Assembly (NCBI GenBank): GCA_013286795.1
Contig: JABDFA010000001.1
Coordinates: forward strand, 104,970 to 168,969
Length of the DNA: 64,000 nt
Origin: Candidatus Babelota bacterium
Lineage (GTDB): Bacteria > Babelota > Babeliae > Babelales > JABDEC01
Direction: 5' to 3'
The notes under the pieces are model-generated. The model was not told where the DNA came from, searched no databases, and worked only from the letters and a program-made list of their open reading frames with translations. This document shows, piece after piece, positions 5,019-30,323 of the stretch. Each line of letters opens with the position of its first letter. Position 1 is the first letter of the stretch. Both the position numbers and the translations under genes were made by a program.

Positions 5019-6203
5019 TTAACTTATTATACAACCAGATTCTTTTTGTTTAGATACTGGTTGGGTTAACCAAGATTCTTGTTCATGTTTAAACTTAATA
5101 AATTCTTCATCAGGAAGATCTAAAGACATTGCTTGATTGCTCCATATTTTTATTGAGTTATCAAACGATCCAGACGCTAATTTATTTTCTGACAGTAAAC
5201 ATAATGAAGAAACTAAACTATCATGACCTTTTAAAGTAGCTATGCATTTATGAGAAGCAAGATCCAATATTTTTATTGTTTTATCAAAGGAAGCAGCAGC
5301 TAATTTATTTCCTGATAATAAGCATATCGAATAAACTGTACTATAAAGACCTTCTAAAGTAGATATGCATTTATGAGAAGCAAGATCCCATATCTTTATT
5401 GTTCCATCTATAGAATTAGAAGCTAATCTGTTTCCTGGTAATACACATACTGAATAAACCCCACCTTTATGATCCTTAAGGGTTTGTTCACAATCGCCAG
5501 AATTTAAATCCCATATTTTTATTGTTTGGTCCCAAGAGGCAGAAGCTAATTTATTTCCTGGTAATAAACATACTGAATAAGCACAATCTTTATGACCTTT
5601 TAAGGTAGCCATACATTTATGAGAAACAAGATCCCATATTTTTATTTTATTATCAGAATCTCCAGAGGCTAATTTATTTTCCGATAATGCACATATTGAA
5701 TGAACCCTATGATTATGGCCTTTTAAAGTGTATATGCATTTGTGAGAAGTAAGATCCCATATTTTTATTGTTTGGTCCCAAGAGGCGGAAGCTAATTTAT
5801 TTTTTGGCAATAGACATATTGAATTGATCAAGTCAGTATGACCTTCCAAAGTAGCTACACATTGATTCGAATTAAGGTCCCATATTTTTATTGTTTTATC
5901 TTTAGAAGCAGAAGCTAATTTATTTCCTGGTAATGCACATACTGAACTAATGTCATGTTCATGACCTGTTAAAGTTCGTTCACATTCCCACTCATTTTTA
6001 ATCGGATCATATTCTTGCACGAGTTTAGCTAAATCAGGTATTAAATGCTCTCTTAAGCAAGCGCTGCGATACTCATTTATTCTGGTTTCTAATGCAGAAG
6101 GGGTCTCTTTTTTTTCTTTTAACTCAGCTGCATTTATGCAAAATGGCAGAGCTAGAATTAATAGTTTTATTTTTAATACTCTATCTATTTTAATATTCTC
6201 CAT
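5019..6203 (-). CDS. Exported 7-blade WD40 repeat protein with an N-terminal HLIPDLAKLVQEYDP motif and a C-terminal CaaX box (CIIS)
   Basis: Seven 42-aa repeats of the form GH....V.S.C.LP.NKLASAS.D.TIKIWDL.S..C..TL. The leader MENIKIDRVLKIKLLILALPFCINA is signal-peptide-like. I place the start at ATG 6203-6201, overlapping the upstream stop as TAATG, rather than the track start at 6221. Confidence 0.85.
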   Translation of the reverse strand: MENIKIDRVLKIKLLILALPFCINAAELKEKKETPSALETRINEYRSACLREHLIPDLAKLVQEYDPIKNEWECERTLTGHEHDISSVCALPGNKLASASKDKTIKIWDLNSNQCVATLEGHTDLINSICLLPKNKLASASWDQTIKIWDLTSHKCIYTLKGHNHRVHSICALSENKLASGDSDNKIKIWDLVSHKCMATLKGHKDCAYSVCLLPGNKLASASWDQTIKIWDLNSGDCEQTLKDHKGGVYSVCVLPGNRLASNSIDGTIKIWDLASHKCISTLEGLYSTVYSICLLSGNKLAAASFDKTIKILDLASHKCIATLKGHDSLVSSLCLLSENKLASGSFDNSIKIWSNQAMSLDLPDEEFIKFKHEQESWLTQPVSKQKESGCIIS

Positions 6204-7363
6204 TATTTTTGGGTTACCCAAGATTCTTTTTCATGCATAAATTTAAGAAATTCTTCATCTGTAGGTCCTGAAGTTATTACTGGGTTGCTCCATATTTTTA
6301 TTGTTTTATCAAAGGAAGCAGAAATTAATTTATTTTCTGGAGATGCACATAGTGATGTAGGTTGACCTTTATGACCTTCCAAAGAAGTAGTAACTTGGCG
6401 TTTATTAAGATCCCATATCTCTATTATACCACTAGTCCGATATGAAGAAGCTAATTTATTTCCTGGTAATGAACATATTTTTAAAATTAGGATAGCATCG
6501 CTTTGTAAAGCAACCTCACATTTACCAGAATCCGACTTCGCTGGAGCTTCGTCGGACAGGGTTAAATTCCATATTATTATTATCCTACCAGCACTAGAAG
6601 CTAACTTATTTCCTGGCAATACGCACATTGATTCCACACGTCCTGTACGTAGTGCAATTATACATTTATTTGAATTCAAATCCCATATTCTTATTTTTCC
6701 ATCCTGAGTAGTATAAGCTAACTTATTTCCTAGTGATACGCTACATACTGAATCAACTTGTGTATCGCTTTCTAAAACAGTTGTACATTTATTTAAAGTA
6801 AGGTCCCATATTCTTATTGTTTTATCAGCAGAAGCAGAAGCTAATTTATTTCCTGGTAATGCACATACTGAATTAACAGAATCTTCATGACCAGTAAGAG
6901 TTTGTTCACATTTGCCGGAGGTTAAATTCCATATCTTTATTATCTTTGTTGTTTCGCCCCAAGAAACAGAAGCTAATTTATTATCTGGCAATGCGCATAC
7001 TGATCGTACTTTATGATCCTCTAGCGTTTGTTCACATTTACCAGAATTGAGATCCCATATTTTGATTGTATTATCTTGAGAAGCAGAGGCTAATTTATTT
7101 CCTGGTAATAAACATACTGAAATAACACCATATGTATGACCTTCTAAAGTTCGTTCACATTCCCACTTATCTTGAATTGGATCATATTCTTGTACAAGCC
7201 TAGCCAAATTAGGAATTAAATGCTCTCTTAAACAAGCATCACGATGCTCATTTATTCTGGTGACCAAGGCAGAAGGGGTCTCTTTTTTTTCTTTTAACTC
7301 AGTTGCGTTTATGCAAAATGGCAGAGCTAGAATTAACAGGTTTATTTTTAATATTGTATTCAT
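6203..7363 (-). CDS. Exported WD40 repeat protein, a more degenerate paralog of 5019-6203, with an N-terminal HLIPNLARLVQEYDP motif
   Basis: The first ~75 aa are near-identical to the downstream paralog (LLILALPFCINATELKEKKETPSAL..RINE.R.ACLREHLIP.LA.LVQEYDPI...WECERTL.GH). WD blades with the NKLASAS.D.TI[KR]IW[DN]L pattern follow, several of them eroded. Confidence 0.85.
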   Translation of the reverse strand: MNTILKINLLILALPFCINATELKEKKETPSALVTRINEHRDACLREHLIPNLARLVQEYDPIQDKWECERTLEGHTYGVISVCLLPGNKLASASQDNTIKIWDLNSGKCEQTLEDHKVRSVCALPDNKLASVSWGETTKIIKIWNLTSGKCEQTLTGHEDSVNSVCALPGNKLASASADKTIRIWDLTLNKCTTVLESDTQVDSVCSVSLGNKLAYTTQDGKIRIWDLNSNKCIIALRTGRVESMCVLPGNKLASSAGRIIIIWNLTLSDEAPAKSDSGKCEVALQSDAILILKICSLPGNKLASSYRTSGIIEIWDLNKRQVTTSLEGHKGQPTSLCASPENKLISASFDKTIKIWSNPVITSGPTDEEFLKFMHEKESWVTQK

Positions 7364-7407
7364 TTTAATATCCTCTTAAATTAATAGAAAGCCAATTATA
7401 TAATAAT

Positions 7408-7436
7408 AAAATAACATGTTATTATCAAGTTGTCAA
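7408..7436 (-). promoter_or_regulatory. Candidate sigma70-type promoter for the WD40 gene pair
   Basis: On the minus strand: TTGACA (7436-7431), a 17-nt spacer, then TATTTT (7413-7408), about 45 nt upstream of the ATG at 7363. -10-like hexamers are common in AT-rich DNA, so this is weak evidence. Confidence 0.3.
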
Positions 7437-7484
7437 ATTATATGAAAAAAAGAGGGGGGTTTTTAGGGCACTCTCCCTTATAAA

Positions 7485-7523
7485 TGAAAAAACCACCGCA
7501 TTGACGAAACATCAATGCGATGG
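7485..7523 (-). terminator. Rho-independent terminator on the minus strand (recF 3' UTR or end of a small RNA)
   Basis: Arms 7493-7504 and 7512-7523 form a 12-bp stem with one mismatch around a 7-nt loop. On the minus strand the hairpin is followed by TTTTTT (forward A-run 7487-7492). It is GC-rich against an AT-rich background. Confidence 0.55.
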
Positions 7524-8869: not shown

Positions 8870-8888
8870 AACTCTCTCTTTTTCATGA

Positions 8889-15313: not shown

Positions 15314-15967
15314 TTAAACTAAACACTTTTCTTTAGAATATTCAGTATATTCTAAAATTATATCAGCTAGTTCAGGCAATAAGCAACAGGATTCAACAAA
15401 TTCTTTGTGTAATTTTTGTCTTCTTCTTTTAGGCTCTTGCTTTATTAATTCAACCATAGCTTGTGTTTCGTTGGCCACCATTTCAGCATATCTAAAATTG
15501 GAGATCTCTAAATCAAAAGAAGCGCCTGCATATAGCAATAGCTTTGCTATAGTTATATTGCCTCTAGCCACTGCCCAATTTAGAGCAGTATCCCCTTTCC
15601 AATCTTTAATATCATAATTAGCATTGGCATCTAGAAGTAATTTCACTATTGCTTCATTTTTATTTATAGTGGCATGTATTAAAGCTGTATAACCACAGTT
15701 ACTTTGAATATCAGTGTCAGCCTCATTATCTAGCAGTAGTTTTACTATAGTTGCATAACCCTTGCTTGCAGCTTCAATTAAAGCTGTTTCATTAATCAAG
15801 TCAGGCTGATGATTTACATCTGCATACTCATCTAGAGCCTTCTGGACAAGTTTTATATTTCCTTCTTGGGCACCCCTGATGAGCATTTGATCAGGATTTT
15901 CGTCCATGCTATAAATTGATCCAATAGACCCTAGGCATATAAATGATAGTAATAATTTAAGTTTCAT
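15314..15967 (-). CDS. Leader-bearing ankyrin-repeat protein (family member 1) with C-terminal LLPELADIILEYT motif
   Basis: ANK repeats (TALIEAASKGYATIVKLLLDNEADTDIQ, YTALIHATINKNEAIVKLLLDANANYDIKD, DTALNWAVARGNITIAKLLLYAGAS). The start is set at ATG 15967-15965 (MKLKLLLSFICLGSIGSIYSM), preceded by GGAGG. The track start at 16069 adds an unsupported extension. Confidence 0.85.
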   Translation of the reverse strand: MKLKLLLSFICLGSIGSIYSMDENPDQMLIRGAQEGNIKLVQKALDEYADVNHQPDLINETALIEAASKGYATIVKLLLDNEADTDIQSNCGYTALIHATINKNEAIVKLLLDANANYDIKDWKGDTALNWAVARGNITIAKLLLYAGASFDLEISNFRYAEMVANETQAMVELIKQEPKRRRQKLHKEFVESCCLLPELADIILEYTEYSKEKCLV

Positions 15968-16571: not shown

Positions 16572-17051
16572 TTGATAATTTTAGGTATAGATCCTGGATT
16601 GCATATTTCAGGATATGCGGTTATAAAAAAAAACGGATCACAAATTATATTGATAGAGCATGGTTTTTTAAAAATGAATCCTACAAAATCAATACCAGAA
16701 CGTATTTTAGAATTTCACTCTTATTTTGATCATAAGATTAAGATTTTTGATGTTTCTGTCGTTTCACTTGAAACCCCATTTCTTGGTCGCAATGCCCAAA
16801 ATTTTTTGAAACTAGGTTACTTGAGAGGAATATTATACCTTTTGTCAAAACAGAATGATTTAAAAATTCATGAGTTTTCACCCAGACAAATCAAGCAATC
16901 TATCACAGGTTTTGGGGGGGCAGGAAAAGATCAAGTAGCACGAGTTATCTTACAATTTTTTCCAGCATTGCAGATGCCAAAAAAATTGGATGTTACAGAT
17001 GCCATAGCTATAACTTTATGTGGTGTCTGGAAGTCAAATCTAAGATTATAG
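16572..17051 (+). CDS. ruvC: Crossover junction endodeoxyribonuclease RuvC
   Basis: (M)IILGIDPGLHISGYAVIKK... , ..LETPFLGRNAQNFLKLGYLRG.., GFGGAGKDQV and DVTDAIAIT carry the RuvC acidic catalytic residues. TTG start. Confidence 0.9.
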   Translation: MIILGIDPGLHISGYAVIKKNGSQIILIEHGFLKMNPTKSIPERILEFHSYFDHKIKIFDVSVVSLETPFLGRNAQNFLKLGYLRGILYLLSKQNDLKIHEFSPRQIKQSITGFGGAGKDQVARVILQFFPALQMPKKLDVTDAIAITLCGVWKSNLRL

Positions 17052-17651
17052 TTTTGATCTTAATTCTGGAGCAATAGTTATTGGATTTTGATCTTTATTA
17101 TTTTTATCAAGTTTAATAAAGGGTATAGGATTATAGTTAGAACCTTCTGTCATATATTTGTAACAATTGAAGTAGTAATTAATTATTTTTATTTTAATTT
17201 CTGATTTAGCTTTATCTACTTTTTCTTTATAAGCTTTTGCTATTTTAATTTGATCTGAACTATAGTTATTGGTTAAGATGACTTTTTCTGCATCACTTTT
17301 AGCTTTAGAAAGAGCATTCAAATAAGCAATAGATAGTTTTTTGTATTCATCGCAAGATTCTTGAGTGATTTTATCGAATTTATTATCATAGTCTCTATTG
17401 GCCACGTCTACGAATAGTACATTTATTGATTTAATTAAATTTTTTATTTTTTCTTTAGACTCTTCAGGTAATATTGAGTTTAAAGGAGGCTCATAAATTG
17501 TTTTAGGATTTACCTCTAATAAAAATAAATTTAATATTTCTTCTACAGCTCGTTTTTTTTCTTTATAATCAAATGTCTGAAATTCTTTTTTCCAATCAGC
17601 ACAATATAAGTTAGTAGTAAATGTTATAAATATTAAAACCTTTTTGATCAT
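17046..17651 (-). CDS. Hypothetical exported protein
   Basis: N-terminal signal-like MIKKVLIFITFTTNLYCADW; the remainder is K/E-rich and probably helical. No family recognised. Confidence 0.5.
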   Translation of the reverse strand: MIKKVLIFITFTTNLYCADWKKEFQTFDYKEKKRAVEEILNLFLLEVNPKTIYEPPLNSILPEESKEKIKNLIKSINVLFVDVANRDYDNKFDKITQESCDEYKKLSIAYLNALSKAKSDAEKVILTNNYSSDQIKIAKAYKEKVDKAKSEIKIKIINYYFNCYKYMTEGSNYNPIPFIKLDKNNKDQNPITIAPELRSKL

Positions 17652-17710
17652 ATTTTCCCAAATTTAAATATGTCTGATAATGTGTATTATGTAAAAAGAA
17701 CTACTGTTTT

Positions 17711-18843: not shown

Positions 18844-19695
18844 CTATAAAGTTTGTTGTTTTTCTTTTGGACAAACAGCATACTCTGAAACTATCTCAGC
18901 CAATTCTGGCAATAAATATTCAGATTCAACAATTTTTTTAACATCTTGTCTTAATTTCTCTCTTTTTTCATATTCTTTTTTTATTAAGTCTTCTATAGAT
19001 TTATGTTTTACTATTTTTGCTATACCTAAAGCTGTTTGACCTCTATAATTTGTTAAATATAAAGAAGCTCCAGCTTCTAATAATAACTTTACTATGGCTT
19101 CTTGATTAGATACCGCAGCGAGCATTAAAGCTGTGTAGTCTCCATCATTTTGAATATCAGGATCAGCGCCATTTTCTAATAATACCTTTATTATATTTTC
19201 ACTATCTTTTATTATTACAGCCATTATTAAAGCTGTATCACCTCTTTTATTTTTATAATTTATATCTGCATTTCTCTGAATAGCACCAAGAACCAAAGAT
19301 ATATCTCCATTGGATGCGCCACTGAAAAGCATTTTATTTGCTTCATGATGCTGTCTTCCTTTTTTATATTCGTTTTCTATTAACAGTTTTATAGGAGCTG
19401 TTTTTGCTAAATCTAAAGCCGTTTTGCCCTTATTATTTTTTAAATCTAGAGAGACTCCAGAAGCTAATAATAGCTTTACCATGGCTTCATAAGAACTAAT
19501 TACAGCTTCCATTAAAGCTGTATAACCGTTTCCATCTGCAGTATTTATATCTGCGTTTTGCGCAAGAGCTTCTTGAACAAGTTTTAGATCGCCGCTTCTA
19601 GCACCTTTAATAAGCATTTTATCAGCATCGCTCATGCTATAAATTGCCCCAATAAATCCCAAGCAAATAAATGTGAATAATAATTTAAATTTCAT
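18844..19695 (-). CDS. Leader-bearing ankyrin-repeat protein (family member 2), two ANK blocks, C-terminal module ...KKEYEKREKLRQDVKKIVESEYLLPELAEIVSEYAVCPKEKQQTL
   Basis: Leader MKFKLLFTFICLGFIGAIYSM. Repeated G.TALM.AV......VKLLLE.GA..D. units. GGAGG RBS in the 9-bp spacer to the upstream gene. Confidence 0.9.
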   Translation of the reverse strand: MKFKLLFTFICLGFIGAIYSMSDADKMLIKGARSGDLKLVQEALAQNADINTADGNGYTALMEAVISSYEAMVKLLLASGVSLDLKNNKGKTALDLAKTAPIKLLIENEYKKGRQHHEANKMLFSGASNGDISLVLGAIQRNADINYKNKRGDTALIMAVIIKDSENIIKVLLENGADPDIQNDGDYTALMLAAVSNQEAIVKLLLEAGASLYLTNYRGQTALGIAKIVKHKSIEDLIKKEYEKREKLRQDVKKIVESEYLLPELAEIVSEYAVCPKEKQQTL

Positions 19696-19704
19696 GTCAA
19701 CCTC

Positions 19705-20331
19705 CTACAAAGTTCGTTTTTCTTTTGGACAAACAGCATACTCTGAAACTATCTCAGCCAATTCTAGAACTATATCAGCTAAATCTGGCAATAGATATTT
19801 GTCAGTAATTTCTTTATAAACATCATTTCTGAATTTTTCTCTTCTTGCATGTTCATTTTCTATTAGATCTATCATAGCAAGATATCTTCTTCTAGATCTA
19901 TATCTATATTCTTCTTTTTTTACTATATCTAAAGCTGTTTCTCCCTCACTATTTTTTAAATCTAAAGAAGCGTCATTTTCTAACAACAGCTTTGCTATAT
20001 CTTCTTTGGCAAAGAATGCAGCATTCATCAAAGCTGTATCGCCATTGTTATCTTGAATATCAGGATTAGCGCCATTATTTAATAACAACTTTACTATATA
20101 TACAGAACCATTAACTATAGCTTTATGTAAGGCTGTATAACCGTATCTATTTTGATAGTTTACATCAGCCTTATTTTTAAGGGCCTTTAGAACAAGTCTG
20201 ATGTCGCCTTCCTCAGCACCCATAATGAGCATTTCATTAGGAGTTTCATGTATGATGAATGTTTCTTCCATTGTATAAAGTGACCCAATAAACCCCAAAG
20301 ACAAAATTGAGAATAATAATTTAAATTTCAT
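19705..20331 (-). CDS. Leader-bearing ankyrin-repeat protein (family member 3) with a chimeric, partly duplicated C-terminal motif LLPDLADIVLE-LAEIVSEYAVCPKEKRTL
   Basis: Leader MKFKLLFSILSLGFIGSLYTM. ANK repeats (YTALHKAIVNGSVYIVKLLLNNGANPDIQD, DTALMNAAFFAKEDIAKLLLENDASLDLKN). The tail DNA at 19705-19765 is identical to the tail of 20482-21252 except one base. Confidence 0.9.
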   Translation of the reverse strand: MKFKLLFSILSLGFIGSLYTMEETFIIHETPNEMLIMGAEEGDIRLVLKALKNKADVNYQNRYGYTALHKAIVNGSVYIVKLLLNNGANPDIQDNNGDTALMNAAFFAKEDIAKLLLENDASLDLKNSEGETALDIVKKEEYRYRSRRRYLAMIDLIENEHARREKFRNDVYKEITDKYLLPDLADIVLELAEIVSEYAVCPKEKRTL

Positions 20332-20340
20332 GTTAACCTC

Positions 20341-20472
20341 CTATAAAATTTCTTTAGATATATCTCCATTGGATGCGCCCAAAATAAGCATTTTATTAGG
20401 AGCCTGACCCATGCTATAAATTGCCCCAATAAATCCCAAGCAAATAAATGTGAATAATAATTTAAATTTCAT
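20341..20472 (-). pseudogene. 43-codon remnant of an ANK-family gene (leader plus first half-repeat, then stop)
   Basis: The minus strand reads MKFKLLFTFICLGFIGAIYSMGQAPNKMLILGASNGDISKEIL*. The leader DNA is identical to that of 18844-19695, and GASNGDIS matches the internal string of that gene. It keeps the same GGAGG spacer but is too short for an ANK fold. Confidence 0.7.
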
Positions 20473-20481
20473 GTCAACCTC

Positions 20482-21252
20482 CTACAAAGTTCGTTTTTCT
20501 TTTGAACAAACAGCATACTCTGAAACTATCTCAGCCAATTCTGGCAATAAATATCCAGATTCAACAATTTTTTTAACATCTTGTCTTAATTTCTCTCTTT
20601 TTTCATATTCTTTTTTTATTAAGTCTGCTATAGATTTATATTTTTTTCTTTTTGCTATATCTAAAGCAGCTTCCCCCTTATTATTTTTTAAATCTAAAGA
20701 GACGCCAGCTTCTAATAATAGTTTTACTATTAGTGGATAATTATTATATACAGCCCACATTAAAGCTGTGTCACCTGTTTTGTCTTTAATATCAAGATTA
20801 ACGCCTCTATGCAGTAGTAGCTCCACAATAGATTTACAATTATCAGGTATAGCCCACATTAAAGCCGTAGCGTTGTTTTCACCGCCTTTAATATCAGGGT
20901 TGGCACCTCCGTCTAACAATAGTTCCACTATATTGTCATGGCGACACCTATGAGATGCAGCTAAAATTAAAGCTGTGTCGTCTTCATCATTTTGAAGATC
21001 AGGATCAGCGCCATTTTCTAGTAATAGTTTTACTATGGATTCATGACCATTATCTGCAGCTATCATTAAAGCTGTAAAGCCATATATATTTTTATAATTT
21101 ACATCAGCTTTCTCTTTAAGGGCTTCTTGAACAAGTTTGATGTCGCCTTCCCCCTCGGCGCCTCTAATGAGCATTTCATTGGGATCCTGCATACTGTAAA
21201 TTGACCCAATGAATACTAAAGATAGAAGCGATATTAATAATTTAATTTTCAC
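20482..21252 (-). CDS. Leader-bearing ankyrin-repeat protein (family member 4) with C-terminal LLPELAEIVSEYAVCSKEKRTL
   Basis: Leader MKIKLLISLLSLVFIGSIYSM. Five to six ANK units (FTALMIAADNGHESIVKLLLENGADPDLQN and others). The 3' 134 bp is near-identical to 18871-19004. Confidence 0.9.
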   Translation of the reverse strand: MKIKLLISLLSLVFIGSIYSMQDPNEMLIRGAEGEGDIKLVQEALKEKADVNYKNIYGFTALMIAADNGHESIVKLLLENGADPDLQNDEDDTALILAASHRCRHDNIVELLLDGGANPDIKGGENNATALMWAIPDNCKSIVELLLHRGVNLDIKDKTGDTALMWAVYNNYPLIVKLLLEAGVSLDLKNNKGEAALDIAKRKKYKSIADLIKKEYEKREKLRQDVKKIVESGYLLPELAEIVSEYAVCSKEKRTL

Positions 21253-21323
21253 AATAACCTCCCTATATTAGTAGAATCATATATATATAATATTATCAAA
21301 TAGAAAATGTACAGTCAAGGCTG

Positions 21324-22691
21324 TTATTCATTGTCTATAAACTTAGTAAGTTCTTTCTGGAATTCTAAATAAAGTGTACCTGTAGGACCATTACGTTGTT
21401 TACCTATTATTAATTCTGCCATAGATGGGTTTTCTGTATCTTGATTATAAACAACATCTCTGTATAAAAACATTATTAAATCAGCGTCTTGCTCAATAGC
21501 ACCTGATTCTCTTAAATCAGAAAGCATGGGTCTTTTATCCATACGAGCATCTACGGCCCTAGAAAGTTGTGAAAGAGCTACAATGGGTATTTTTAATTCT
21601 TTTGCCAACCCTTTTAAGGCCCTAGAAATCTCTGATACCTCCTGATGTCTATTTTCATGCTTTTTGGTTGAATGTAATAATTGAAGATAATCTATCACTA
21701 ATAACTGTAAATTGTGATCAACTTTTAACTTTCTAGCTTTGGCCCTAAGATCCATTATACTCAAGGCTGGGGTATCATCAATAAATAATTTATAGTTTGC
21801 TAATTTAGCAGCTACACTTGTAAGTTCGATCCATTCATCTGAAGATATTGTCGCATTTCTTATTTTATGCAAGGAAATATTTGATTCTGTCGACAATAAC
21901 CTCAAGGTTAATTGTTCTGCTGACATTTCAAGAGAAAATACTCCTACCGTAATACCATTAAGAGCTGCATTGGTTGCAATATTTAAGGCTAGGGAAGTTT
22001 TTCCCATAGAGGGTCTTGCTGCTAATATTATAAGATCCCCATTTTGCATACCCGAGGTAATTTCATCTAATTTTTTAAATCCAGAAGAGATCCCGGTTAT
22101 TCCTCTACTGTGAGCCTTAATATCTGAAAGATGAGAGAACGTCTTTTTTAACCATATATTTAATTGAACAAAAGACTGATTAGAACGCTTGTTGGAAATT
22201 CTAAATATTATTTTTTCTGCTGTATCTAGTACCGAGTCAATTTCTTCATCATTCTGAGAATAACAATTAGATATGATCTCGGTGGCTGATCCAATCAATT
22301 CTCTTAAAACAGACTTTTCTTTGATGATTTTTGCATGTTGCTCTACAAGACCAGATAAATGAATATCTTCTTGCAAAGAGATTAGATATACTAGCCCACC
22401 AACGAAATCTATTTGTTTTTTTTTTTCTAATTCGTCTTGCAATGTAACAAAATCAATTCTTTTCCCCTTTTGCGATAATTCTAACATAATTTCATATATT
22501 ATTTTATGACTTATATTATAAAAATCTAAAGGCAAGAGAATTTCGCCAACTTGATTAAAATTAGAATCATTTAATAAAATGGCACCTAAAACAGCTTTTT
22601 CTGCATCAACATTTGATGGAAGTTGTTTGCCCAAAACAGACTCTATTACATCGTTAGAGTTATTTTTTTTTGGATGAAATGTTTTAAGCAT
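21324..22691 (-). CDS. dnaB: Replicative DNA helicase DnaB
   Basis: LPSNVDAEKAVLGAILL (N-domain), Walker A AARPSMGKTSLALN, Walker B LLVIDYLQLL, then SRALKGLAKELKIPIVALSQLSR..E.R.DKRPMLSDLRESGAIEQDAD. Confidence 0.95.
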   Translation of the reverse strand: MLKTFHPKKNNSNDVIESVLGKQLPSNVDAEKAVLGAILLNDSNFNQVGEILLPLDFYNISHKIIYEIMLELSQKGKRIDFVTLQDELEKKKQIDFVGGLVYLISLQEDIHLSGLVEQHAKIIKEKSVLRELIGSATEIISNCYSQNDEEIDSVLDTAEKIIFRISNKRSNQSFVQLNIWLKKTFSHLSDIKAHSRGITGISSGFKKLDEITSGMQNGDLIILAARPSMGKTSLALNIATNAALNGITVGVFSLEMSAEQLTLRLLSTESNISLHKIRNATISSDEWIELTSVAAKLANYKLFIDDTPALSIMDLRAKARKLKVDHNLQLLVIDYLQLLHSTKKHENRHQEVSEISRALKGLAKELKIPIVALSQLSRAVDARMDKRPMLSDLRESGAIEQDADLIMFLYRDVVYNQDTENPSMAELIIGKQRNGPTGTLYLEFQKELTKFIDNE

Positions 22692-22696
22692 TCTTT

Positions 22697-23140
22697 TTAT
22701 TCTGAAATAACTTTAAGTAAAAATTTAGGTTTCAATTGGTTAGATAACTTTACAGTAACCTCAAATGAGCCTTGTTTTTTTATAGGCTTTTCTAGTTCAA
22801 CTTGATTTTTGGATATTTTTATTCCTTCTGTATCCAATAAATTTACTATGTCAGAAGAATTAATGGCACCATACAACTTTTCTTTATCATGCATTTTTCG
22901 CTTTAATGTTATCTTTAATGCTTTTATTTTTTCTGCAAGCATAGAAGTTTTGGTTGCTACTGCTTCTTTTCTATTTTCAATAGTTTTGACTTTATTAAGA
23001 TAAAGTTGCTCATTTTCATTTGTAATTACTACACCTAGTTTTTTTGGAACTAAAAAATTGGTGGCGTAACCTTCTTTAACTTTTATAATTTCTCCGGGTA
23101 TGCCTACTCTTTCTACATCTTTTAATAAAAATACTTTCAT
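22697..23140 (-). CDS. rplI: 50S ribosomal protein L9
   Basis: MKVFLLKDVERVGIPGEIIKVKEGYATNFLVPKKLG is the canonical L9 N-domain. 147 aa, directly upstream of dnaB. Confidence 0.9.
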   Translation of the reverse strand: MKVFLLKDVERVGIPGEIIKVKEGYATNFLVPKKLGVVITNENEQLYLNKVKTIENRKEAVATKTSMLAEKIKALKITLKRKMHDKEKLYGAINSSDIVNLLDTEGIKISKNQVELEKPIKKQGSFEVTVKLSNQLKPKFLLKVISE

Positions 23141-23224
23141 GGTTATCCTATAATTAATAATTTAATTAATTATAGTATACTCAAAAAAAGCAATTTTTTA
23201 AAATTTATACTAATTTATTCTAGG

Positions 23225-24337
23225 TTATTTTTGTTTTGGACAAACTGCATACTCTGAAACTATATTAGCTAAATCTGAAGGTAGATACTTATCAACAATT
23301 TTTTTAACATCTTGTCTTAATTTCTCTCTTTTTTTATATTCATTTTCTATTAGTTCTATGTTATATTCATTTCCTATACCTCTCGCATAATCTAATGCGG
23401 TTTTACCATCTTTATCTTTTAAATCTAAATCAGCACCAGCTTCTAACAAGAGTTCTACTATGACTTTATTATATTTATTAGCAGCCAACATTAAAGCTGT
23501 ATCTCCTCGATTGCTTTTAATATTAGGATTAGCACCATTTTCTAATAAAAAATTCACCATTTTATTATCTTGACTTCTTGTAGCATACATCAAAGCTGTC
23601 CACCCACTTTCGTCTTGATAATTTATATTTGTTTGATAATTTATATTTGCAGCAATTTTTTTATTACCAAACATAGCACTTTTAACTGAAGTCAATATTG
23701 AAGCTATATAACCCTCTTTATAATCCTCTTTTTTTTGTCCAATAGATTCTCGAACCTGTTCAAAATTCCTTGTTGATGCACCACCCAAGAGCATTTCATG
23801 CTGTCTTCTGTATCTTAGATATTCACGAGCTGTTTTTCCCTCTTTATTTGGTAAATCTAAATTAGCGCCTTTATGTATCAATAATTCTCTTATATCTTCA
23901 TGATTCATAATTGCAGCATACATTAAAGCTGTATAACCTTCATTATTTTGAATATTAGGGTTAGCGCCATTTTCTAATAATAGTTTTGCTGTACTATAGG
24001 CTACATCACAGCCTATATAATAGCCCTTATAAGGCCTTGATGCGACATACATTAAAGCTGTATAACCTTGATTATTTTGAATATCAGGATTAGCACCCCT
24101 ATCTAATAGTAGTTTTACTATTCCTGTATTGTATTTAAGACCACTCCACATTAAAGCTGTCCAACCATGTCTATCTTTATAATTTATATCTGCTTTTTGC
24201 TCAAGAGCTTCTTGGACAAGTTTGATATCATCAATTTCTGAACCTCTAATGAGCATTTCATTGGGTGATTCACTCATGGTATAAAGTGATCCAATAAATC
24301 CCAAAGATGTAAGCGATATCAATAATTTAAATTTCAT
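23225..24337 (-). CDS. Leader-bearing ankyrin-repeat protein (family member 5, 370 aa) with C-terminal LPSDLANIVSEYAVCPKQK
   Basis: Leader MKFKLLISLTSLGFIGSLYTM. Two ANK blocks separated by a non-ANK linker. C-terminal module ENEYKKREKLRQDVKKIVDKYLPSDLANIVSEYA. Confidence 0.9.
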   Translation of the reverse strand: MKFKLLISLTSLGFIGSLYTMSESPNEMLIRGSEIDDIKLVQEALEQKADINYKDRHGWTALMWSGLKYNTGIVKLLLDRGANPDIQNNQGYTALMYVASRPYKGYYIGCDVAYSTAKLLLENGANPNIQNNEGYTALMYAAIMNHEDIRELLIHKGANLDLPNKEGKTAREYLRYRRQHEMLLGGASTRNFEQVRESIGQKKEDYKEGYIASILTSVKSAMFGNKKIAANINYQTNINYQDESGWTALMYATRSQDNKMVNFLLENGANPNIKSNRGDTALMLAANKYNKVIVELLLEAGADLDLKDKDGKTALDYARGIGNEYNIELIENEYKKREKLRQDVKKIVDKYLPSDLANIVSEYAVCPKQK

Positions 24338-24346
24338 ATTAACCTC

Positions 24347-25276
24347 CTATGAAAGTTTTTTTTCTATTAGATCTACTATAGATTTATTTTCTTTTTCTAT
24401 TGCTATATCTAAAGCTGTGTGACCATATTGATTTGTTAAATATAAAGCAGCACCAGCTTCTAATAACAGCTTTGTTGTGTCTACTTGACTAAATGCAACT
24501 GCCAACATTAAAGCTGTATAACCTTGATTATTTTGAATATTAAGATTGGCACCATTCTTCAATAATAACTTTAATATATCTCCTTGAGCAAGCATTAAAG
24601 CCGTCAAACCATTTTTATCTTTATAATTTACATCTGCACCATCTTGAAGAGCTTTTTGAACGAGTATTATATTATTATCTTGCGCACCCTTTAAAAGCAG
24701 CTGATTTGAAGGATCTTTTTGTTTTGAATAATTTGCATATTCTAGAACTATATTAGCCAAATCTGGCAATAGATATTTGTCAGTAATTTCTTTATGAACA
24801 TTCTGTCTGAATTTCTCTCTTTTTTCATATTCTTTTTTTATTAAATCTTCTAAAGATTTATATTTTTCTTTTTTTGCAATATCTAAAGCTGTTTGACCAT
24901 ATTGATTTGTTAAATCTAAAGAAGCACCAGATTCTAACAACAGTTTTACTATAGTTTCTCGAGAAAGAGATGCAGCGAACATTAAAGCTGTATAGCCATT
25001 ATTATTTTGAATATCAGGATCAGCGCCATTATTTAATAACAACTTTGTCATATATAAATTTGCAGCACTCATTAAAGCTGTATTACCATATATATTTTTA
25101 TAATTTACATCAGCTTTCTTTTTAAGGGCTTCTTGAACAAGTTTCATATCACCATTTTCAGCGCCCCTAACAAGCATTTCATTAGGAGTTTCATATCGGA
25201 TGAATGTTTCTTCCAGTGTATAAATTGACCCAATAAATCCCAAACAAATAAATATGAATAATAATTTAAATTTCAT
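24347..25276 (-). CDS. Two-module ankyrin-repeat protein (family member 6): a complete leader-ANK-motif unit fused in frame to a second, leaderless and motif-less ANK unit
   Basis: Leader MKFKLLFIFICLGFIGSIYTL. The internal module KKEYEKREKFRQNVHKEITDKYLLPDLANIVLEYANYSKQK (motif at nt 24734-24772) is followed by DPSNQLLLKGAQDNNIILVQKALQDGADVNY, which resembles the mature N-terminus of other members. The protein ends DLIEKKLS. Confidence 0.9.
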   Translation of the reverse strand: MKFKLLFIFICLGFIGSIYTLEETFIRYETPNEMLVRGAENGDMKLVQEALKKKADVNYKNIYGNTALMSAANLYMTKLLLNNGADPDIQNNNGYTALMFAASLSRETIVKLLLESGASLDLTNQYGQTALDIAKKEKYKSLEDLIKKEYEKREKFRQNVHKEITDKYLLPDLANIVLEYANYSKQKDPSNQLLLKGAQDNNIILVQKALQDGADVNYKDKNGLTALMLAQGDILKLLLKNGANLNIQNNQGYTALMLAVAFSQVDTTKLLLEAGAALYLTNQYGHTALDIAIEKENKSIVDLIEKKLS

Positions 25277-25441: not shown

Positions 25442-25888
25442 TCAATTGCTAATTATAAACTTTTGCAAAGGCTTATTTTGTTCAAAAACTAACTCTCTAT
25501 GAATATTCGTTTTAATTATTATTTCATTCTCGCTACCTGATTCTACCGTTAATGCTTCAATAGATAGCTCCGGATCATTTTTCTTTAATTTCAAAAGAGC
25601 ATCGTAATTTATTATATCACCATCCGGCCAATTTCCCTTAAAAATCACTTTTTCTGAATGATTTTCATATTTTTCTATGAGTGCATAATTATTTATACAA
25701 AAGTATGTACCAAACTTACAAAGAGCTTCTGTGGCCCTATATTGTTTTTCATATGTATATTTTTTTGCAACAGAATCCTGTAAAAGTGCTATATTTTGCC
25801 AATAATTAATAAAATATAGAGATATTATCGACAATACAAGTACTAAAACCAAAACTACAAAACCTTCTTTGTTTTTCATAATATTCAC
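25442..25888 (-). CDS. Hypothetical membrane-anchored protein, possibly a degenerate pseudopilin (last gene of the minor-pilin cluster)
   Basis: N-terminus MNIMKNKEGFVVLVLVLVLSIISLYF has a G-F-hydrophobic stretch but lacks the Glu/Asp at +5. The call rests mainly on context with the two upstream prepilin-like genes. Confidence 0.35.
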   Translation of the reverse strand: MNIMKNKEGFVVLVLVLVLSIISLYFINYWQNIALLQDSVAKKYTYEKQYRATEALCKFGTYFCINNYALIEKYENHSEKVIFKGNWPDGDIINYDALLKLKKNDPELSIEALTVESGSENEIIIKTNIHRELVFEQNKPLQKFIISN

Positions 25889-25917
25889 ATTCTAAAAATT
25901 CTAAGACTATGTTAGCT

Positions 25918-26412
25918 TTATATAGAAATAAGAAATACTTCTGATCTAGTAGACACAAGATTTTCAATTTTTTGCAAAAAGTTGTTTATTTTAAATTCTA
26001 TAGTTGTTTTTAAGAGCTTTTGATTTTCACTGACCCTAAATTCTAATCTATGTATATCTTTAGCGACCAGACTTTCGGTTTTATCTGCCCAGGTATCATT
26101 CATGGGATTATATTTTCCTATAGTTCTATACAGTCTATCTTGATCTAACTTCCAACCCACTTCATGATCTTTAGTTGAAAAAATTATTTCCTCCCTTTGT
26201 TGTTTTTTATAGCCATGATATAAACATTGGCGAATATCGTTATCTAAGAGATCAAGAGCTGTCCAGTACATTGTTTTTTGTGTGCAATTTTTGTATTTCG
26301 AGCCGTATTTACTATAGTTTTGTGCAGCAAACTGAAATATGGTCAAAATTAATAGCGAAGAAAGAAATATATATATTAATGTTTCTATTAATGTAAATCC
26401 TAAAGATTTCAT
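25918..26412 (-). CDS. Prepilin-type N-terminal cleavage/methylation domain protein (minor pseudopilin, GspJ/PilW-like size)
   Basis: MKSLGFTLIETLIYIFLSSLLILTIF is the canonical G|FTLIE prepilin peptidase motif followed by a hydrophobic helix. 164 aa. Confidence 0.7.
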   Translation of the reverse strand: MKSLGFTLIETLIYIFLSSLLILTIFQFAAQNYSKYGSKYKNCTQKTMYWTALDLLDNDIRQCLYHGYKKQQREEIIFSTKDHEVGWKLDQDRLYRTIGKYNPMNDTWADKTESLVAKDIHRLEFRVSENQKLLKTTIEFKINNFLQKIENLVSTRSEVFLISI

Positions 26413-26771
26413 ATTATTATTGCTGTTATCATACTTATTTGATGCTCTTTTTCTGTTTTCCAGTATGTGTTTATTTTTAGAACAATGAACTTATTTATGG
26501 TATTTTTCAAAATCTCAATTTTTATAGTAAAAATATCTACTTTTATCTCTTTTCTATCATATATTTTTATTTTACTGCCATTAATCTCTTCTATTATATT
26601 GTTTGAGATGTTTAACGCTCTTCTAAATAAATCTATCTCTTTCTCTTGTTTTATAAGTTGCCAGTTAGCGCAGGCCATAGATAAACAGATTATTGAAAAT
26701 ATTCCAATTGAAATTACTAGATCTATTAATAAAAATCCGCTATAATTATAAATATGATTATTGTTATACAT
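26409..26771 (-). CDS. Pseudopilin-like protein (GspI/PilV-like size) with a degenerate prepilin motif
   Basis: ...YSGFLLIDLVISIGIFSII: G-F-L-L-I-D, with Asp in place of Glu at +5, followed by a hydrophobic helix. 120 aa, with a 4-nt overlap with the downstream pseudopilin gene. Confidence 0.5.
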   Translation of the reverse strand: MYNNNHIYNYSGFLLIDLVISIGIFSIICLSMACANWQLIKQEKEIDLFRRALNISNNIIEEINGSKIKIYDRKEIKVDIFTIKIEILKNTINKFIVLKINTYWKTEKEHQISMITAIII

Positions 26772-26831: not shown

Positions 26832-28712
26832 ATGAGATTTTTTAAATTTTTATTTATTTTATTTTTTTGCATTTTAAATGCTTCAAATAATTTATTTTCT
26901 TTGGACCCTTTTCATTTGTCTCCAGAAGATGCCAAATTTATTGATGAAATCTTAGGAACGATCCCTCCGGAAGAAAGAGATCAAATTAAAGGTCAGATTT
27001 TTGAAGAAGTTAATCGCTTTCAACAGATGACTCCACAAGATCAGGATCTTTATCTTCAAAATAAATTCAAAGAAATGGAAACCCTTACAACTAGTCCACA
27101 ATCTCCACAAGCGCCAAATCTTGGTCCAAATGAAAATGCTGAACCCATTAGTACAAAATTTCAAGAGACAGAATCAATCGCACCCGAATCTATATCTATA
27201 ACGCCTAAGATCGCAACCTCAAAAGCTGATACAAATTTATTAACTATTTTAGAATCATTATCTGATTCAATAGATTTATTGTTAATTAAGGTTAAAGCTC
27301 TGCCCAGAGTATCACAACAAAGAAAAGTTGAAAAAGAGTGGCTCAAGTTAAAAGCAGATTTACATGATCTAGAATCTTATCTTCGCATTGTTATATTTCA
27401 AAAAAAGGCATTGAAAGCTTTGTCATCAGATGAGTATAAAAATTTAAAAAATAATTTGAAAACTCTAGAAAGTAATCTTTCTGGCTTAGTTGAGAACTTG
27501 AGTATTTATTTACCAGATACAGCCGGACTAACTATTTCTTTTGGAGAAGAGGATTTTAGTGTCGAAAAAAAGAATGAAAGCAAGGCACAAAAAATATTAT
27601 CAGACATTATGTCATTACTAACAAATAACCTTGAAAGCAAAAATATTAATGAAGATCTAAAATCTTTATTAAAAAAACATGCCCCTGAAGAATTAAAAAA
27701 GAAAGAATTACCATTGGCTCCAGAACCGTATATGTCAGCTCAACGTAGTTACACCTCCCCTTCTTTTGGTGGTGGCGGTGGCTATGATTACAACCCAGGC
27801 TATTACCCTTACCGCCCTTCTTTTGGCGATGGTGCCGGTTCTACTCCATCAACACAGGGCGCTACCAAGTCAGGTTTAGAAACAAAAGATGAATCTAAAA
27901 AAGATAAAGGTGGTACTAGTGGTGGTGGTGGTGGCAAAGGCAAAGGTGCCTCAGGCGTTCCAGACAAGGATAAAGATAAGGACAAATCCAAAGACAAAAA
28001 AGAGGATAAAGACAAAGAAAAAGATAAAGACAAAAAAGAAGATAAAAAAGATAGTAAAGATAAGGTAAAAAAGAAAACAAGATCTGCTGCACAGAAAAAA
28101 AGATCTAAGTATGGCAATCCTGAAATAGAGGCATTTTTAAGAAAGCTAGAGGATTATTTAGTTGAATTTTCAAATTTAGTAGACAAAGACTCTGTAGACA
28201 TTTTACTTAAAGGTGAAGATAAAAAAATAAAAGATGATTTCAAAAAAGCAGCTGGTCTATATGATAATCATATACTAAAGTTATCAAGCCATATAGGAAA
28301 ACACTTAGGAAATCTACATAAAGACGCTAAACCTTTATTAATGAAGTCTATCAAGGAAATTTATGATGATCCTGATTACGAGCTTGAAAAGACTTACAAA
28401 AAAATTAAGACTTCTTTATTAATTCTTGAAGGTCAAGATTTAAAGGGTGACCAAAAAGAACAAAAGCGTATCTTAGAAGATCTTAATGCTAAGATGATTC
28501 GACTCAAACAGGATCTAGGTTTAGAGCCTAAGCAAAATGTTGCAACTCAACAACAATTTGGTAGTCCGGTTACAAGCAACCCTGACCTAGCTCAAGGTAA
28601 TACAGATGTTGAATATGAAGTCGAAGGTGATGGTCCAATGTTTGATAATGATGGCAACGCTTATTTCTCTAATTTGGATCAGGATAAAATATCAGATAAA
28701 CTAGGAGCGTAG
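26832..28712 (+). CDS. Large exported low-complexity protein (626 aa) with a G/Y/P-rich segment and a (K/D/E)n tract
   Basis: Signal-like MRFFKFLFILFFCILNASNN. Central FGGGGGYDYNPGYYPYRPSFGDGAGS, then GGGGGKGKGASGVPDKDKDKDKSKDKKEDKDKEKDKDKKEDKKDSKDK. No family recognised. Confidence 0.6.
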   Translation: MRFFKFLFILFFCILNASNNLFSLDPFHLSPEDAKFIDEILGTIPPEERDQIKGQIFEEVNRFQQMTPQDQDLYLQNKFKEMETLTTSPQSPQAPNLGPNENAEPISTKFQETESIAPESISITPKIATSKADTNLLTILESLSDSIDLLLIKVKALPRVSQQRKVEKEWLKLKADLHDLESYLRIVIFQKKALKALSSDEYKNLKNNLKTLESNLSGLVENLSIYLPDTAGLTISFGEEDFSVEKKNESKAQKILSDIMSLLTNNLESKNINEDLKSLLKKHAPEELKKKELPLAPEPYMSAQRSYTSPSFGGGGGYDYNPGYYPYRPSFGDGAGSTPSTQGATKSGLETKDESKKDKGGTSGGGGGKGKGASGVPDKDKDKDKSKDKKEDKDKEKDKDKKEDKKDSKDKVKKKTRSAAQKKRSKYGNPEIEAFLRKLEDYLVEFSNLVDKDSVDILLKGEDKKIKDDFKKAAGLYDNHILKLSSHIGKHLGNLHKDAKPLLMKSIKEIYDDPDYELEKTYKKIKTSLLILEGQDLKGDQKEQKRILEDLNAKMIRLKQDLGLEPKQNVATQQQFGSPVTSNPDLAQGNTDVEYEVEGDGPMFDNDGNAYFSNLDQDKISDKLGA

Positions 28713-28912: not shown

Positions 28913-28941
28913 TTGACTATTTCTGCATTACATGCTATAAT
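28913..28941 (+). promoter_or_regulatory. Near-consensus sigma70 promoter for the ANK gene at 28981
   Basis: TTGACT (28913-28918), a 17-nt spacer, then TATAAT (28936-28941), 40 nt upstream of the GTG start, which is preceded by GGAGGG. Confidence 0.6.
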
Positions 28942-28980
28942 TGCTATTAGATAATTAGATCTGTAAAATATGGAGGGCTT

Positions 28981-29784
28981 GTGAAAAAATTAATTTTAAC
29001 TTTATCATTAATCGCTTTATCAACGTCGTTATTTACAATGGAGGAACAACCTGCAAAAAAACACAAGGGCTGCTTATCAAGAATTCTAAATTTTAGACAA
29101 AATCAAAGAGAACTAAAAGATATAAAAAAAGAGTTAGCTAACTTAAAATTAGCTGCAGCTAAAACAGTAGAAGAAGCTCAAGCAGCAATTAAAGAAGGAG
29201 CAGATATCAATAAAAAAGAAAATGGCCGCACTCCATTAAGTTTCGCATTAATTCGTTGCGAACCACAAGTAGCAGAATTTTTAATAAATATGGGCGCAGA
29301 TATACATAGCAAAGATGAAAATGGCAACTCATTTGTAACTAATGCATTACATGGAGAATGTTATGACGTAGCTCGTTTGCTTATTAAAAAAGGTGTTGAT
29401 GTCAAAAATGTATCAACTCTAAACACTGCAGTCAATAGCGAACAGATAGATCTAGTAAAAATGATATTAGACAAAGGAGTAAACATTAACTCACAAAATG
29501 AATATGGTATAACACCTCTTATGAATGCTATAAAACAAGGAAATTTAGAAATGGTTAAGTTTCTTGTTAATAACGGGGCTGAAATTGATATTAAAGATAA
29601 AAATGGCAAAACAGCCCTAGATTATGCAAGACAAAGCGATAATCAAGAGATTATAGAATTTTTAGATAATACATATCGACCATTTTTAACAAGCAAAATT
29701 TTAGAAGTTACAAATTTAATACCAGATGTTGCCAATATAGCTTCAGACTATTGGTCCAGCACTCCTGAAGAAATAACTATTTAG
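28981..29784 (+). CDS. Leader-bearing ankyrin-repeat protein (divergent family member 7) with C-terminal LIPDVANIASDYW motif
   Basis: GTG start after GGAGGG. Leader (M)KKLILTLSLIALSTSLFTMEEQP. ANK units (RTPLSFALIRCEPQVAEFLINMGADIHSKD, ITPLMNAIKQGNLEMVKFLVNNGAEIDIKD, KTALDYARQSDNQEIIEFL). Confidence 0.85.
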   Translation: MKKLILTLSLIALSTSLFTMEEQPAKKHKGCLSRILNFRQNQRELKDIKKELANLKLAAAKTVEEAQAAIKEGADINKKENGRTPLSFALIRCEPQVAEFLINMGADIHSKDENGNSFVTNALHGECYDVARLLIKKGVDVKNVSTLNTAVNSEQIDLVKMILDKGVNINSQNEYGITPLMNAIKQGNLEMVKFLVNNGAEIDIKDKNGKTALDYARQSDNQEIIEFLDNTYRPFLTSKILEVTNLIPDVANIASDYWSSTPEEITI

Positions 29785-29864
29785 AACAAGAATGTTGATT
29801 TTTCTATTTGTATTTGATATCATATATTATAGTAAGTATAAAATATAAAAAATATGGAGGATTT

Positions 29865-30323
29865 ATGAAAAATTTAAAGTTAACTATTTTAACAATTACT
29901 CTATTAATCTACATACCTTCAGTATTTACAATAGATATGGATGTAGATGAACAAACAGAACAGACAAAAAAAGAAATATTAAACAAATTAGAATCAGGTG
30001 GCCTGTATACCGACCTATCAAATATAATTCTAGATTATGTTGGCAGCATAGAAGACCTGATATTAAATGCCATGCTTTTAGATGCTGCAAGAAATCTTGA
30101 TACCAAGCTTATTTATAAAGCTGTTAAATTAGGCGCAGATGTTAATGCTAAAGATGCAAAAAATTATACGGCGTATGATTATATTGAGAAGGCTTATAAA
30201 AAGTTATATGGTAATGGTTCGCATATAAATCCAAATGATATAGATGCATTAACTGAATACTCTAATTTAATGCCATTTTTAAAACCCAAAAAACCCGTAG
30301 AATACGAAAGCATTTGGTATTAA
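29865..30323 (+). CDS. Small leader-bearing protein with an N-terminal LYTDLSNIILDYV motif followed by one or two ANK-like repeats (family member 8)
   Basis: ATG 29865 is preceded by GGAGG (the track start at 29808 is unsupported). Leader MKNLKLTILTITLLIYIPSVFT. LLDAARNLDTKLIYKAVKLGADVNAKD is ANK-like. Confidence 0.65.
   Translation: MKNLKLTILTITLLIYIPSVFTIDMDVDEQTEQTKKEILNKLESGGLYTDLSNIILDYVGSIEDLILNAMLLDAARNLDTKLIYKAVKLGADVNAKDAKNYTAYDYIEKAYKKLYGNGSHINPNDIDALTEYSNLMPFLKPKKPVEYESIWY

Follow-up and report, generated by a model that had tools for sequence, protein, structure and literature searches.

A short terminal helical motif of ankyrin-repeat and WD40 proteins in a Candidatus Babelota bacterium recurs in other bacteria and on virus-like contigs and may act as a docking handle

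A large part of the genome in Dependentiae-like bacteria and in giant viruses encodes ankyrin-repeat (ANK) and other repeat proteins of unknown target (PMC4378268, PMC6561590). The locus considered here is a 64,000-nucleotide stretch of Candidatus Babelota bacterium assembly GCA_013286795.1 (contig JABDFA010000001.1, positions 104,970 to 168,969 of the forward strand; GC content ~30%), which we call the window. Its GC content and its many leader-bearing ANK proteins, taken with the literature, suggest a Dependentiae-like bacterium. The locus raises the question of why ten proteins, most of them built on ANK or WD40 repeats, should carry one and the same short string of residues. We found that this motif is real, modular, terminal and under purifying selection, and that it is present in other bacteria and on virus-like contigs. 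As for what it does, we consider the chances about even that the module is a constant docking handle for one conserved protein of the (protist) host.

A preliminary description of the locus had named ten motif proteins with their coordinates, and had put the motif N-terminally in the WD40 proteins, C-terminally in six ANK proteins and internally in the ANK protein at 24347-25276. Both the set and the placements were borne out by a six-frame scan of the 64 kb window with the regular expression [LI][LIPY][PST][DEN][LV][AS]x[ILV][VIA]x[ED]Y, whose matches fall in exactly ten open reading frames (ORFs) and nowhere else. The carriers are given below with their strands; E-values are those of a hidden Markov model (HMM) built from 15 members outside this genome.

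5019-6221, minus strand: WD40-1, with a leader, an N-terminal helix-turn-helix module, a seven-bladed WD40 propeller (seven Pfam WD40 matches; propeller modelled by AlphaFold2 (AF2) with a predicted local distance difference test score (pLDDT) above 85) and a conserved C-terminal helix.
5961-6125, minus strand: N-terminal module of WD40-1, residues 33-87, with motif LIPDLAKLVQEY at nucleotides (nt) 6009-6044.
6203-7363, minus strand: WD40-2, paralogue of WD40-1, with motif LIPNLARLVQEY at nt 7184-7219 (E=3.4e-6).
15314-15967, minus strand: leader-bearing ANK protein with C-terminal motif LLPELADIILEY at nt 15347-15382 (E=0.04).
18844-19695, minus strand: leader-bearing two-module ANK protein with C-terminal motif LLPELAEIVSEY at nt 18880-18915.
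19705-20331, minus strand: leader-bearing ANK protein with a duplicated motif (LLPDLADIVLE+LAEIVSEYA) at nt 19738-19794, that is, 19759-19794 plus 19738-19764.
20482-21252, minus strand: leader-bearing ANK protein with a tail module at nt 20485-20637 (residues 206-256) and the motif at nt 20515-20550.
23225-24337, minus strand: leader-bearing two-module ANK protein with C-terminal motif LPSDLANIVSEY at nt 23249-23284.
24347-25276, minus strand: two tandem ANK genes fused, with internal motif LLPDLANIVLEY at nt 24737-24772 (E=1.5e-7).
28981-29784, plus strand: leader-bearing ANK protein with divergent C-terminal motif LIPDVANIASDY at nt 29716-29751.
29865-30323, plus strand: small leader-bearing protein with one ANK-like stretch and divergent N-terminal motif LYTDLSNIILDY at nt 30003-30038.

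By Pfam, seven of the ten carriers have ANK repeats and two have WD40 repeats, and the ORF at 29865-30323 gives a faint ANK match only. All ten ANK/WD40 ORFs of the window carry the motif, and none of the other ORFs does. Each carrier begins with a hydrophobic leader, basic and then hydrophobic, as read off the translations; at least ten further leader-bearing ORFs, mostly with no Pfam match, are without the motif. In the WD40 proteins it stands immediately ahead of the first propeller strand, and in six ANK tails 7-11 residues lie between its end and the stop. The divergent motif of the ANK protein at 28981-29784 is bridged to the consensus by a database protein, P0024 (NLIPDVANIVAEY). The ORF at 29865-30323 ranks as the weakest member of the set, because the HMM of outside members does not find it.

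Do the ANK and WD40 copies belong together? The seven ANK tails are plainly homologous across ~45 residues and the two WD40 N-termini are homologous to one another across ~55 residues; the link between the two families spans only ~12 residues. We scanned every six-frame ORF fragment of the window with a position-specific scoring matrix (PSSM) trained on the ANK cores only. The seven ANK proteins score 34-39 bits, WD40-1 scores 22.1 bits (a value reached by 0 of 2e7 random positions), and WD40-2 and the ANK-like ORF score 17.6 and 17.5 bits (p ~2.5e-7 per position, E ~0.005 for the window), whereas the next best fragment of the window reaches only 9.6 bits. At the DNA level, a degenerate form of the motif has four matches in the window, where shuffled sequence predicts 0.00. 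Very short HMMER models are far less decisive: an ANK-core HMM gives E=0.12 for WD40-1, E=7 for WD40-2 and E=0.08 for the ANK-like ORF, and in the reverse test a WD40 HMM meets the ANK proteins at E=0.012-0.05. The HMM of the 15 outside members recovers both WD40 proteins and five ANK proteins at E 1e-7 to 2e-5, and two further ANK proteins at E=0.04. Given the gap in PSSM scores and the evidence from outside the genome, we accept the ANK and WD40 copies as one family, so that the earlier proposal of a motif common to two repeat scaffolds holds.

A motif repeated within one locus may be kept alike by selection or by conversion, and the two leave different marks. Synonymous (dS) and nonsynonymous (dN) divergence were compared among WD40-1, WD40-2 and their orthologue in metagenome sample Ga0207097. 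Across the 55 codons of the N-terminal module, dS is 0.35-0.49 and dN 0.06-0.09, against dS 0.27-0.57 and dN 0.20-0.35 in the propeller; between the two paralogues, dN is 0.09 at dS 0.47 in the module and 0.35 at dS 0.55 in the propeller. Low dN at normal dS indicates that the module is kept by purifying selection rather than gene conversion, and the propeller diverges fast. In the ANK tails this trend is present but weaker. In one pair, the 45-codon tails 18844-18980 and 20482-20620 differ by dS=0 and dN=0.028 while the neighbouring repeats have dS=0.54, which points to recent gene conversion of this tail.

Fusion has also shaped the tandem ANK array at 18844-25276, which evolves by in-frame joining of genes. 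In the protein at 24347-25276, a module of leader, ANK repeats and tail is followed without a break by a second ANK module, which lacks both leader and tail and begins like the mature N-terminus of the neighbouring ANK proteins. The motif is internal here because two genes have been fused and the first module has kept its complete tail. The junctions in the two-module proteins at 18844-19695 and 23225-24337, ENEYKKGRQHHEANKMLFSGAS and REYLRYRRQHEMLLGGAS respectively, read as if the beginning of a tail had been joined to that of the following module and the motif lost. Finally, the motif of the protein at 19705-20331 contains an in-register duplication of 7 residues (one heptad), pointing to unequal recombination between two kinds of tail.

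The motif is not confined to this genome. A profile search of 1.84 billion representative proteins returned 26 matches, the window's own proteins included. Among them are ~15 other leader-bearing ANK proteins with the motif at the C-terminus and a third WD40 protein with HLIDDLARLVQEYDP, encoded on a contig that equals the window's in length (177,881 bp) and is most likely the same one; two repetitive proteins without the motif are spurious. A metagenome scan with a DNA pattern derived from the window gave 40 loci. Sample Ga0207097 (GC 0.30) holds a close relative in which both arrangements, C-terminal in ANK and N-terminal in WD40 proteins, are kept. At least three further GC classes of bacteria have leader-bearing ANK proteins with the motif, and motif-bearing ANK proteins lie on contigs of GC 0.40-0.42 (L030, L047 and L053) and GC 0.55 (L061); L047 and L061 are bacterial, since both encode UvrA. 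On a further bacterial contig, L055, the motif (SPLMPDLANIVIEYAGAS) is N-terminal on an unknown fold.

We also found the motif in leaderless proteins on contigs of another kind. One lies on a contig from a giant-virus metagenome-assembled genome (L003), one on a contig resembling those of nucleocytoplasmic large DNA viruses (NCLDV) that encodes a kinase-cyclin fusion, an SNF2 helicase, an astacin and an Asp/Asn hydroxylase (L063), one on a virophage-like contig with a weak Sputnik V18/19 match (L002), and one on a contig with a divergent histone H3 (PF00125, 93 bits) and a GNAT protein (L039). The last of these and L054 (GC 0.57-0.58, both from one whole-genome shotgun project) have paralogous genes with the motif at the N-terminus, RKVA+RVA[DE]H[ST]PLIPDLANIVAEYA, in two tandem copies on L054. 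They are of eukaryotic origin or from a histone-encoding virus, and a protein search with the L054 sequence returned only itself and the L039 protein. Within the viral collection, the two motif proteins of the virus contigs had no other relatives. Protists are the hosts suggested by the NCLDV-like and virophage-like settings.

Other searches defined the limits of the family. Among the metagenome loci, members score 25-43 bits with the family HMM, against at most 19 bits for chance matches to the pattern; a candidate on L057 (704-1318, ILPDLAGIVAEYAKP) at 18.8 bits is a false positive, its string being a native helix of profilin. The DNA pattern matched 596 Gb of species-representative genomes at 20 scattered single-hit positions, with no cluster like that of Ga0207097 in this collection. 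Looser DNA patterns retrieved mostly QueF and phage proteins and were set aside, and word-indexed protein searches with the motif alignments gave no matches.

It could be argued that these copies have no function in common, the ANK tails being a family capping helix kept by descent and the WD40 and external matches being convergent amphipathic helices. The weak ANK-WD40 links of the short HMMER models (E 0.01-0.12), the chance appearance of the pattern in the profilin helix and in several enzymes, and the homogenisation of some ANK tails by gene conversion would all fit such an account. We nevertheless regard it as highly improbable. The PSSM separates the ten ORFs from the rest of the window (17.5 vs 9.6 bits), members and chance matches form two separate groups of family-HMM scores, and the low dN at normal dS of the WD40 module reflects selection and not conversion. 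Moreover, flanking positions outside the search pattern, and thus unselected, are conserved too (basic residues at -7/-6, Glu at -5, Leu or Val at -4, His at -1 and Ala at +1), and the motif is terminal in nearly all members.

An alignment of 38 carriers extends the consensus to [RK][RK]E[LV]xx(H)-[LI][LI]P[DE]LAx[IL]VxEY[A], in which the motif is the second helix of a helix-turn-helix module of ~20-35 residues. A basic amphipathic helix, [RK][RK]E[LV]xx, is followed by a turn of 1-3 residues (often His) and then by the motif helix, which has a Pro-Asp/Glu cap, Leu, Ile/Val and Tyr on one face, an invariant small Ala and an invariant Glu; its LAxIVxE core is one heptad. The module sits at the extreme N- or C-terminus of scaffolds that are otherwise unrelated. 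In the ANK proteins the last repeat continues as a long charged helix (…DLIKKEYEKREKLRQDVKKIVES), with a two-residue turn before the motif helix, and the residues after the motif are often AVCPKEK.

The AF2 model of the ANK protein at 20482-21252 (mean pLDDT 88) has a helix at residues 206-233, a turn, and an 11-residue motif helix at 237-247; blocks of the tail have pLDDT 84, 74 and 72, and the last six residues 50. In WD40-1 a helix at 41-58, a turn at H59 and a motif helix at 62-70 lead through DP into the first propeller strand. Here the module has pLDDT ~51 or lower, below 50 for the motif-bearing residues 52-74 (the alignment held two sequences), and because of these low values its placement against the propeller is uncertain. 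AF2 thus predicts a helix-turn-helix in ANK and WD40 contexts alike, with the motif at low confidence in the latter. A Foldseek search of PDB and BFVD with the ANK model returned generic ANK proteins only and was uninformative on the tail.

We consider a docking handle to be the reading that these properties suggest, because the module is portable, terminal, more constrained than its scaffold and common to bacteria and virus-like elements. In the mechanism that we envisage, the ANK and WD40 carriers would be exported into the host cell by way of a Sec-type leader, where they would attach through the constant module to one conserved host (protist) protein and would use the rapidly evolving surface of the ANK or WD40 scaffold to capture varied targets. 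Substrate receptors, among them F-box, SOCS-box and DCAF proteins, work on this principle. By analogy only, the adaptor of a cullin-RING ligase is the leading candidate class for the partner, and action through Skp1 or another adaptor is possible. That the proteins are exported to the host cytoplasm, that they dock there and what they dock onto are all inferred. The occurrence of the motif on virus-like contigs and in several bacterial lineages points to the host cell as its site of action. The absence of leaders from the proteins on virus-like contigs argues that the motif acts within the host cell, independently of bacterial secretion.

This last point bears on a different idea, that the motif is a bacterial sorting signal: recognised by a chaperone or by an export route across the outer membrane, it would mark Sec-exported proteins for release. 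All bacterial carriers have leaders, the motif is terminal like many secretion signals, and pseudopilin genes lie inside the ANK neighbourhood (25442-26771). However, a bacterial signal would hardly be expected in leaderless proteins on giant-virus-like, virophage-like and histone-bearing contigs, nor would it be N-terminal in some carriers and C-terminal in others, and at least ten other leader-bearing proteins of the window do without it. We therefore give this idea very little credence. The preliminary description had offered, as its fallback, an undescribed docking or sorting signal, which suits the findings better than a minimal F-box or PRANC module does, docking more so than sorting.

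Its first proposal had been a minimal F-box or PRANC module. In FBXW proteins the F-box is N-terminal to the WD40 repeats, and in poxvirus, Orientia and Wolbachia proteins PRANC is C-terminal to the ANK repeats. An extremely truncated F-box of the PRANC type, reduced to helix 1 and binding host Skp1, would make the ANK and WD40 proteins substrate receptors of SCF ligases, and the placement of the motif mirrors both precedents. The motif shares with these modules a short helical end on ANK or WD40 scaffolds of proteins from intracellular parasites, an opening hydrophobic residue and Pro that lead into an amphipathic helix, and the combination of a constant module with a variable scaffold. The PRANC-like position is seen in six ANK tails of the window and in the ~15 ANK proteins from the database, but the motif is N-terminal in the WD40 proteins and in several carriers that are not ANK proteins.

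Profile comparisons gave this proposal no support. Neither the full proteins nor the isolated tails match PF00646, PF12937 or PF09372 at E≤10, NCBIfam has no match for the motif, and a profile search of all PDB sequences with the motif found no F-box protein. The best match in that search was lymphostatin/LifA, a large bacterial toxin (9qb8/9euv, residues 2867-2882, NLADIVAEYARIQKEE, E 0.05-0.14), probably by chance. An unfiltered HMM built from seven Pfam-confirmed F-boxes scored 43 motif segments at no more than 1.5 bits. In a check of its power, fragments of five other real F-boxes comprising helix 1 only scored 2.1-15.9 bits and the motif cores at most 0.1, below all five; the weakest real fragments reach only 2-3 bits, so this test has limited power. 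Where hhalign aligns anything, it puts the F-box 'sLP' on 'LiP', at a probability of 0.1% (P=0.5).

Structure and register agree with the profiles. The helix-1 signature LPxE[IL][IL]xxI[LF]xxL is out of register with the motif, which has two residues fewer after LP and would need a two-residue deletion, and the motif's conserved Ala, Glu and Tyr have no F-box counterpart. With 7-11 residues after the motif, the ANK tails leave no room for helices 2 and 3: the AF2 tail has a single 11-residue helix past the turn, and only ~12-20 residues are conserved, compared with the three helices and ~40-50 residues of an F-box. On L055 (853-3700), the motif gene has as its direct neighbour a canonical F-box-WD40 gene (PF00646, 25 bits, above the cut-off); because the two coexist there, we treat F-box and motif as distinct modules and not as one. 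The alignment by eye in the preliminary description has no discriminating power, as LisH helix 1 and the C-terminal half of the SOCS box fit about equally well or better. The minimal F-box/PRANC reading was accordingly not upheld by Pfam, HMM scores, hhalign, tail length or register, and we rate a truncated F-box as improbable. Membership in the F-box, PRANC, LisH or SOCS-box families is not supported.

Could the motif instead mimic the handle of another cullin-ligase adaptor, either the SOCS box (Elongin C/Cul5) or the H-box by which DCAF proteins and HBx bind DDB1? SOCS boxes occur on both ANK (ASB) and WD40 (WSB) proteins. The order of elements in a SOCS box, helix, short loop, LP(x)P, helix and protein end, resembles that of the module. 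Of the three families compared by profile, the SOCS box, represented by an HMM of eight validated examples, came closest (hhalign probability 1.3%, P=0.04 over 33 columns; best single-sequence score 5.9 bits), although P=0.04 is not significant because three comparisons were made. No match to PF07525 was found in the full proteins or the isolated tails; on inspection, neither the BC-box consensus [STP]LxxxCxxx[ILV] nor the LPxP Cul5 box is present, and the WD40 copies are N-terminal, unlike the SOCS box of WSB proteins.

The H-box, the DDB1-binding helix of DDB2, CSA, HBx and SV5-V, resembles the motif in being a helix or helix-loop-helix ahead of a WD40 propeller, which is where the AF2 model of WD40-1 sets it (pLDDT ~51 or lower), and in being a portable handle for viral hijackers, as is proposed for the motif. 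HBx begins ILPKVL, which may be comparable to LIPDLA of the motif. On the other hand, the second half of the helix is unrelated, the propeller repeats of the window's WD40 proteins contain no WDxR motifs, and H-box helices have almost no sequence consensus and no usable sequence profile. Mimicry of either handle seems to us quite unlikely.

A further possibility is self-association, in which two hairpins would form a four-helix bundle, as LisH does, and dimerise the repeat scaffolds for avidity. LisH is likewise a short helical motif, N-terminal to many WD40 propellers, and by eye the pattern [DE]-L-x-x-[IL]-[IV]-x-[DE]-Y fits LisH helix 1 without gaps. A lone two-helix hairpin is unlikely to be stable by itself, the strictly conserved small Ala suggests tight helix-helix packing, and the one-heptad core LAxIVxE tolerates the 7-residue in-register duplication in the protein at 19705-20331. 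Yet PF08513 and the other LisH models have no match at E≤10 in full proteins or isolated tails, a LisH HMM scores at most 1.6 bits, hhalign leaves the motif region unaligned, the second LisH helix is missing, and the motif also occurs C-terminal to ANK repeats, unlike LisH. Self-association would, moreover, leave unexplained why a specific sequence, polar positions included, is common to unrelated parasites of protists. On balance we think it rather unlikely.

Several points count against the docking handle itself. No known docking domain matches the module in Pfam, NCBIfam, PDB, HMM or hhalign comparisons, and a two-helix hairpin could equally self-associate. The bare pattern arises in ordinary helices, such as that of the L057 profilin, and the viral collection alone yields four matches, one of them spurious, a count not above chance. 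Because the pattern that retrieved the outside loci came from the window itself, the independent evidence consists of the flanks, the terminal placement and the bimodal scores. Lastly, that the proteins reach the host cytoplasm is an assumption taken from published work on related bacteria, where most Dependentiae ANK proteins have signal peptides and secretion into the host is presumed (PMC4378268, PMC6561590).

If there is a docking handle, it may reach beyond one bacterial lineage. We put forward, tentatively and as less probable than docking as such, that the module is a host-hijacking handle not recognised before, common to several lineages of intracellular bacteria, giant viruses and virophages of protists by horizontal transfer or convergence. 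It would dock effectors onto a single conserved hub of the host, such as a ubiquitin-ligase adaptor, and its interface would differ from those of the F-box, SOCS box and H-box. This would be a new class of substrate-receptor mimic. The module appears to be undescribed, as the motif strings had no match in the literature, although short terminal adaptor handles on repeat-protein effectors are already well known. A handle defined by its sequence would mark those repeat proteins that act through one common host partner. The 20-45-residue module would be a direct bait for finding that partner, and the motif a search key for effectors in metagenomes; should the partner prove to be a ligase adaptor, the module would add to the small list of portable E3-recruiting modules of pathogens.

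Other features of the carriers deserve mention. In the ANK tails a conserved Cys stands three residues past EY and is followed by a Lys-rich end (AVCPKEK…), for example at 18844-18879 and 20482-20514. It could be a site of lipidation or membrane contact; a CaaX-type lipidation site was rejected, since the Cys is not at the CaaX position. The WD40 proteins have a second appended helix at the C-terminus, P(T)DEEF[IL]KF.HE.ESW[LV]TQ (nt 5061-5111 and 6209-6262), which does not vary between the two paralogues and persists in the Ga0207097 orthologue (L046); its pLDDT in the AF2 model is low. A likeness of WD40-1 residues 68-79 (LVQEYDPIKNEW, nt 5985-6020; VExYDPxxNxW) to designed Kelch propellers was discarded at per-domain E 29-300, the whole-sequence E-values being inflated because six weak repeated matches add up. 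A likeness of the WD40 N-terminus to the N-terminal helix of G-beta was unsupported by the PDB sequence search.

The window encodes further leader-bearing proteins. Many such ORFs, at 17046-18748, 26832-28712, 30678-31052, 43812-45035 and 46406-51615, have neither a Pfam match nor the motif, so that the motif is not a general mark of exported proteins. The product of 42576-43715, also leader-bearing, has a C39-like/AvrRpt2-like papain-fold peptidase domain (PF13529, 7e-18) and is possibly a secreted protease effector. A small leader-bearing protein at 30338-30688 contains two C2H2-like Cys/His pairs (CRYC…HEKYH and CVCDC…HKLGTH), with no Pfam zinc-finger match. Three small prepilin/pseudopilin-like genes (25442-26771) separate the ANK cluster from a large secreted protein rich in Gly and Lys (26832-28712).

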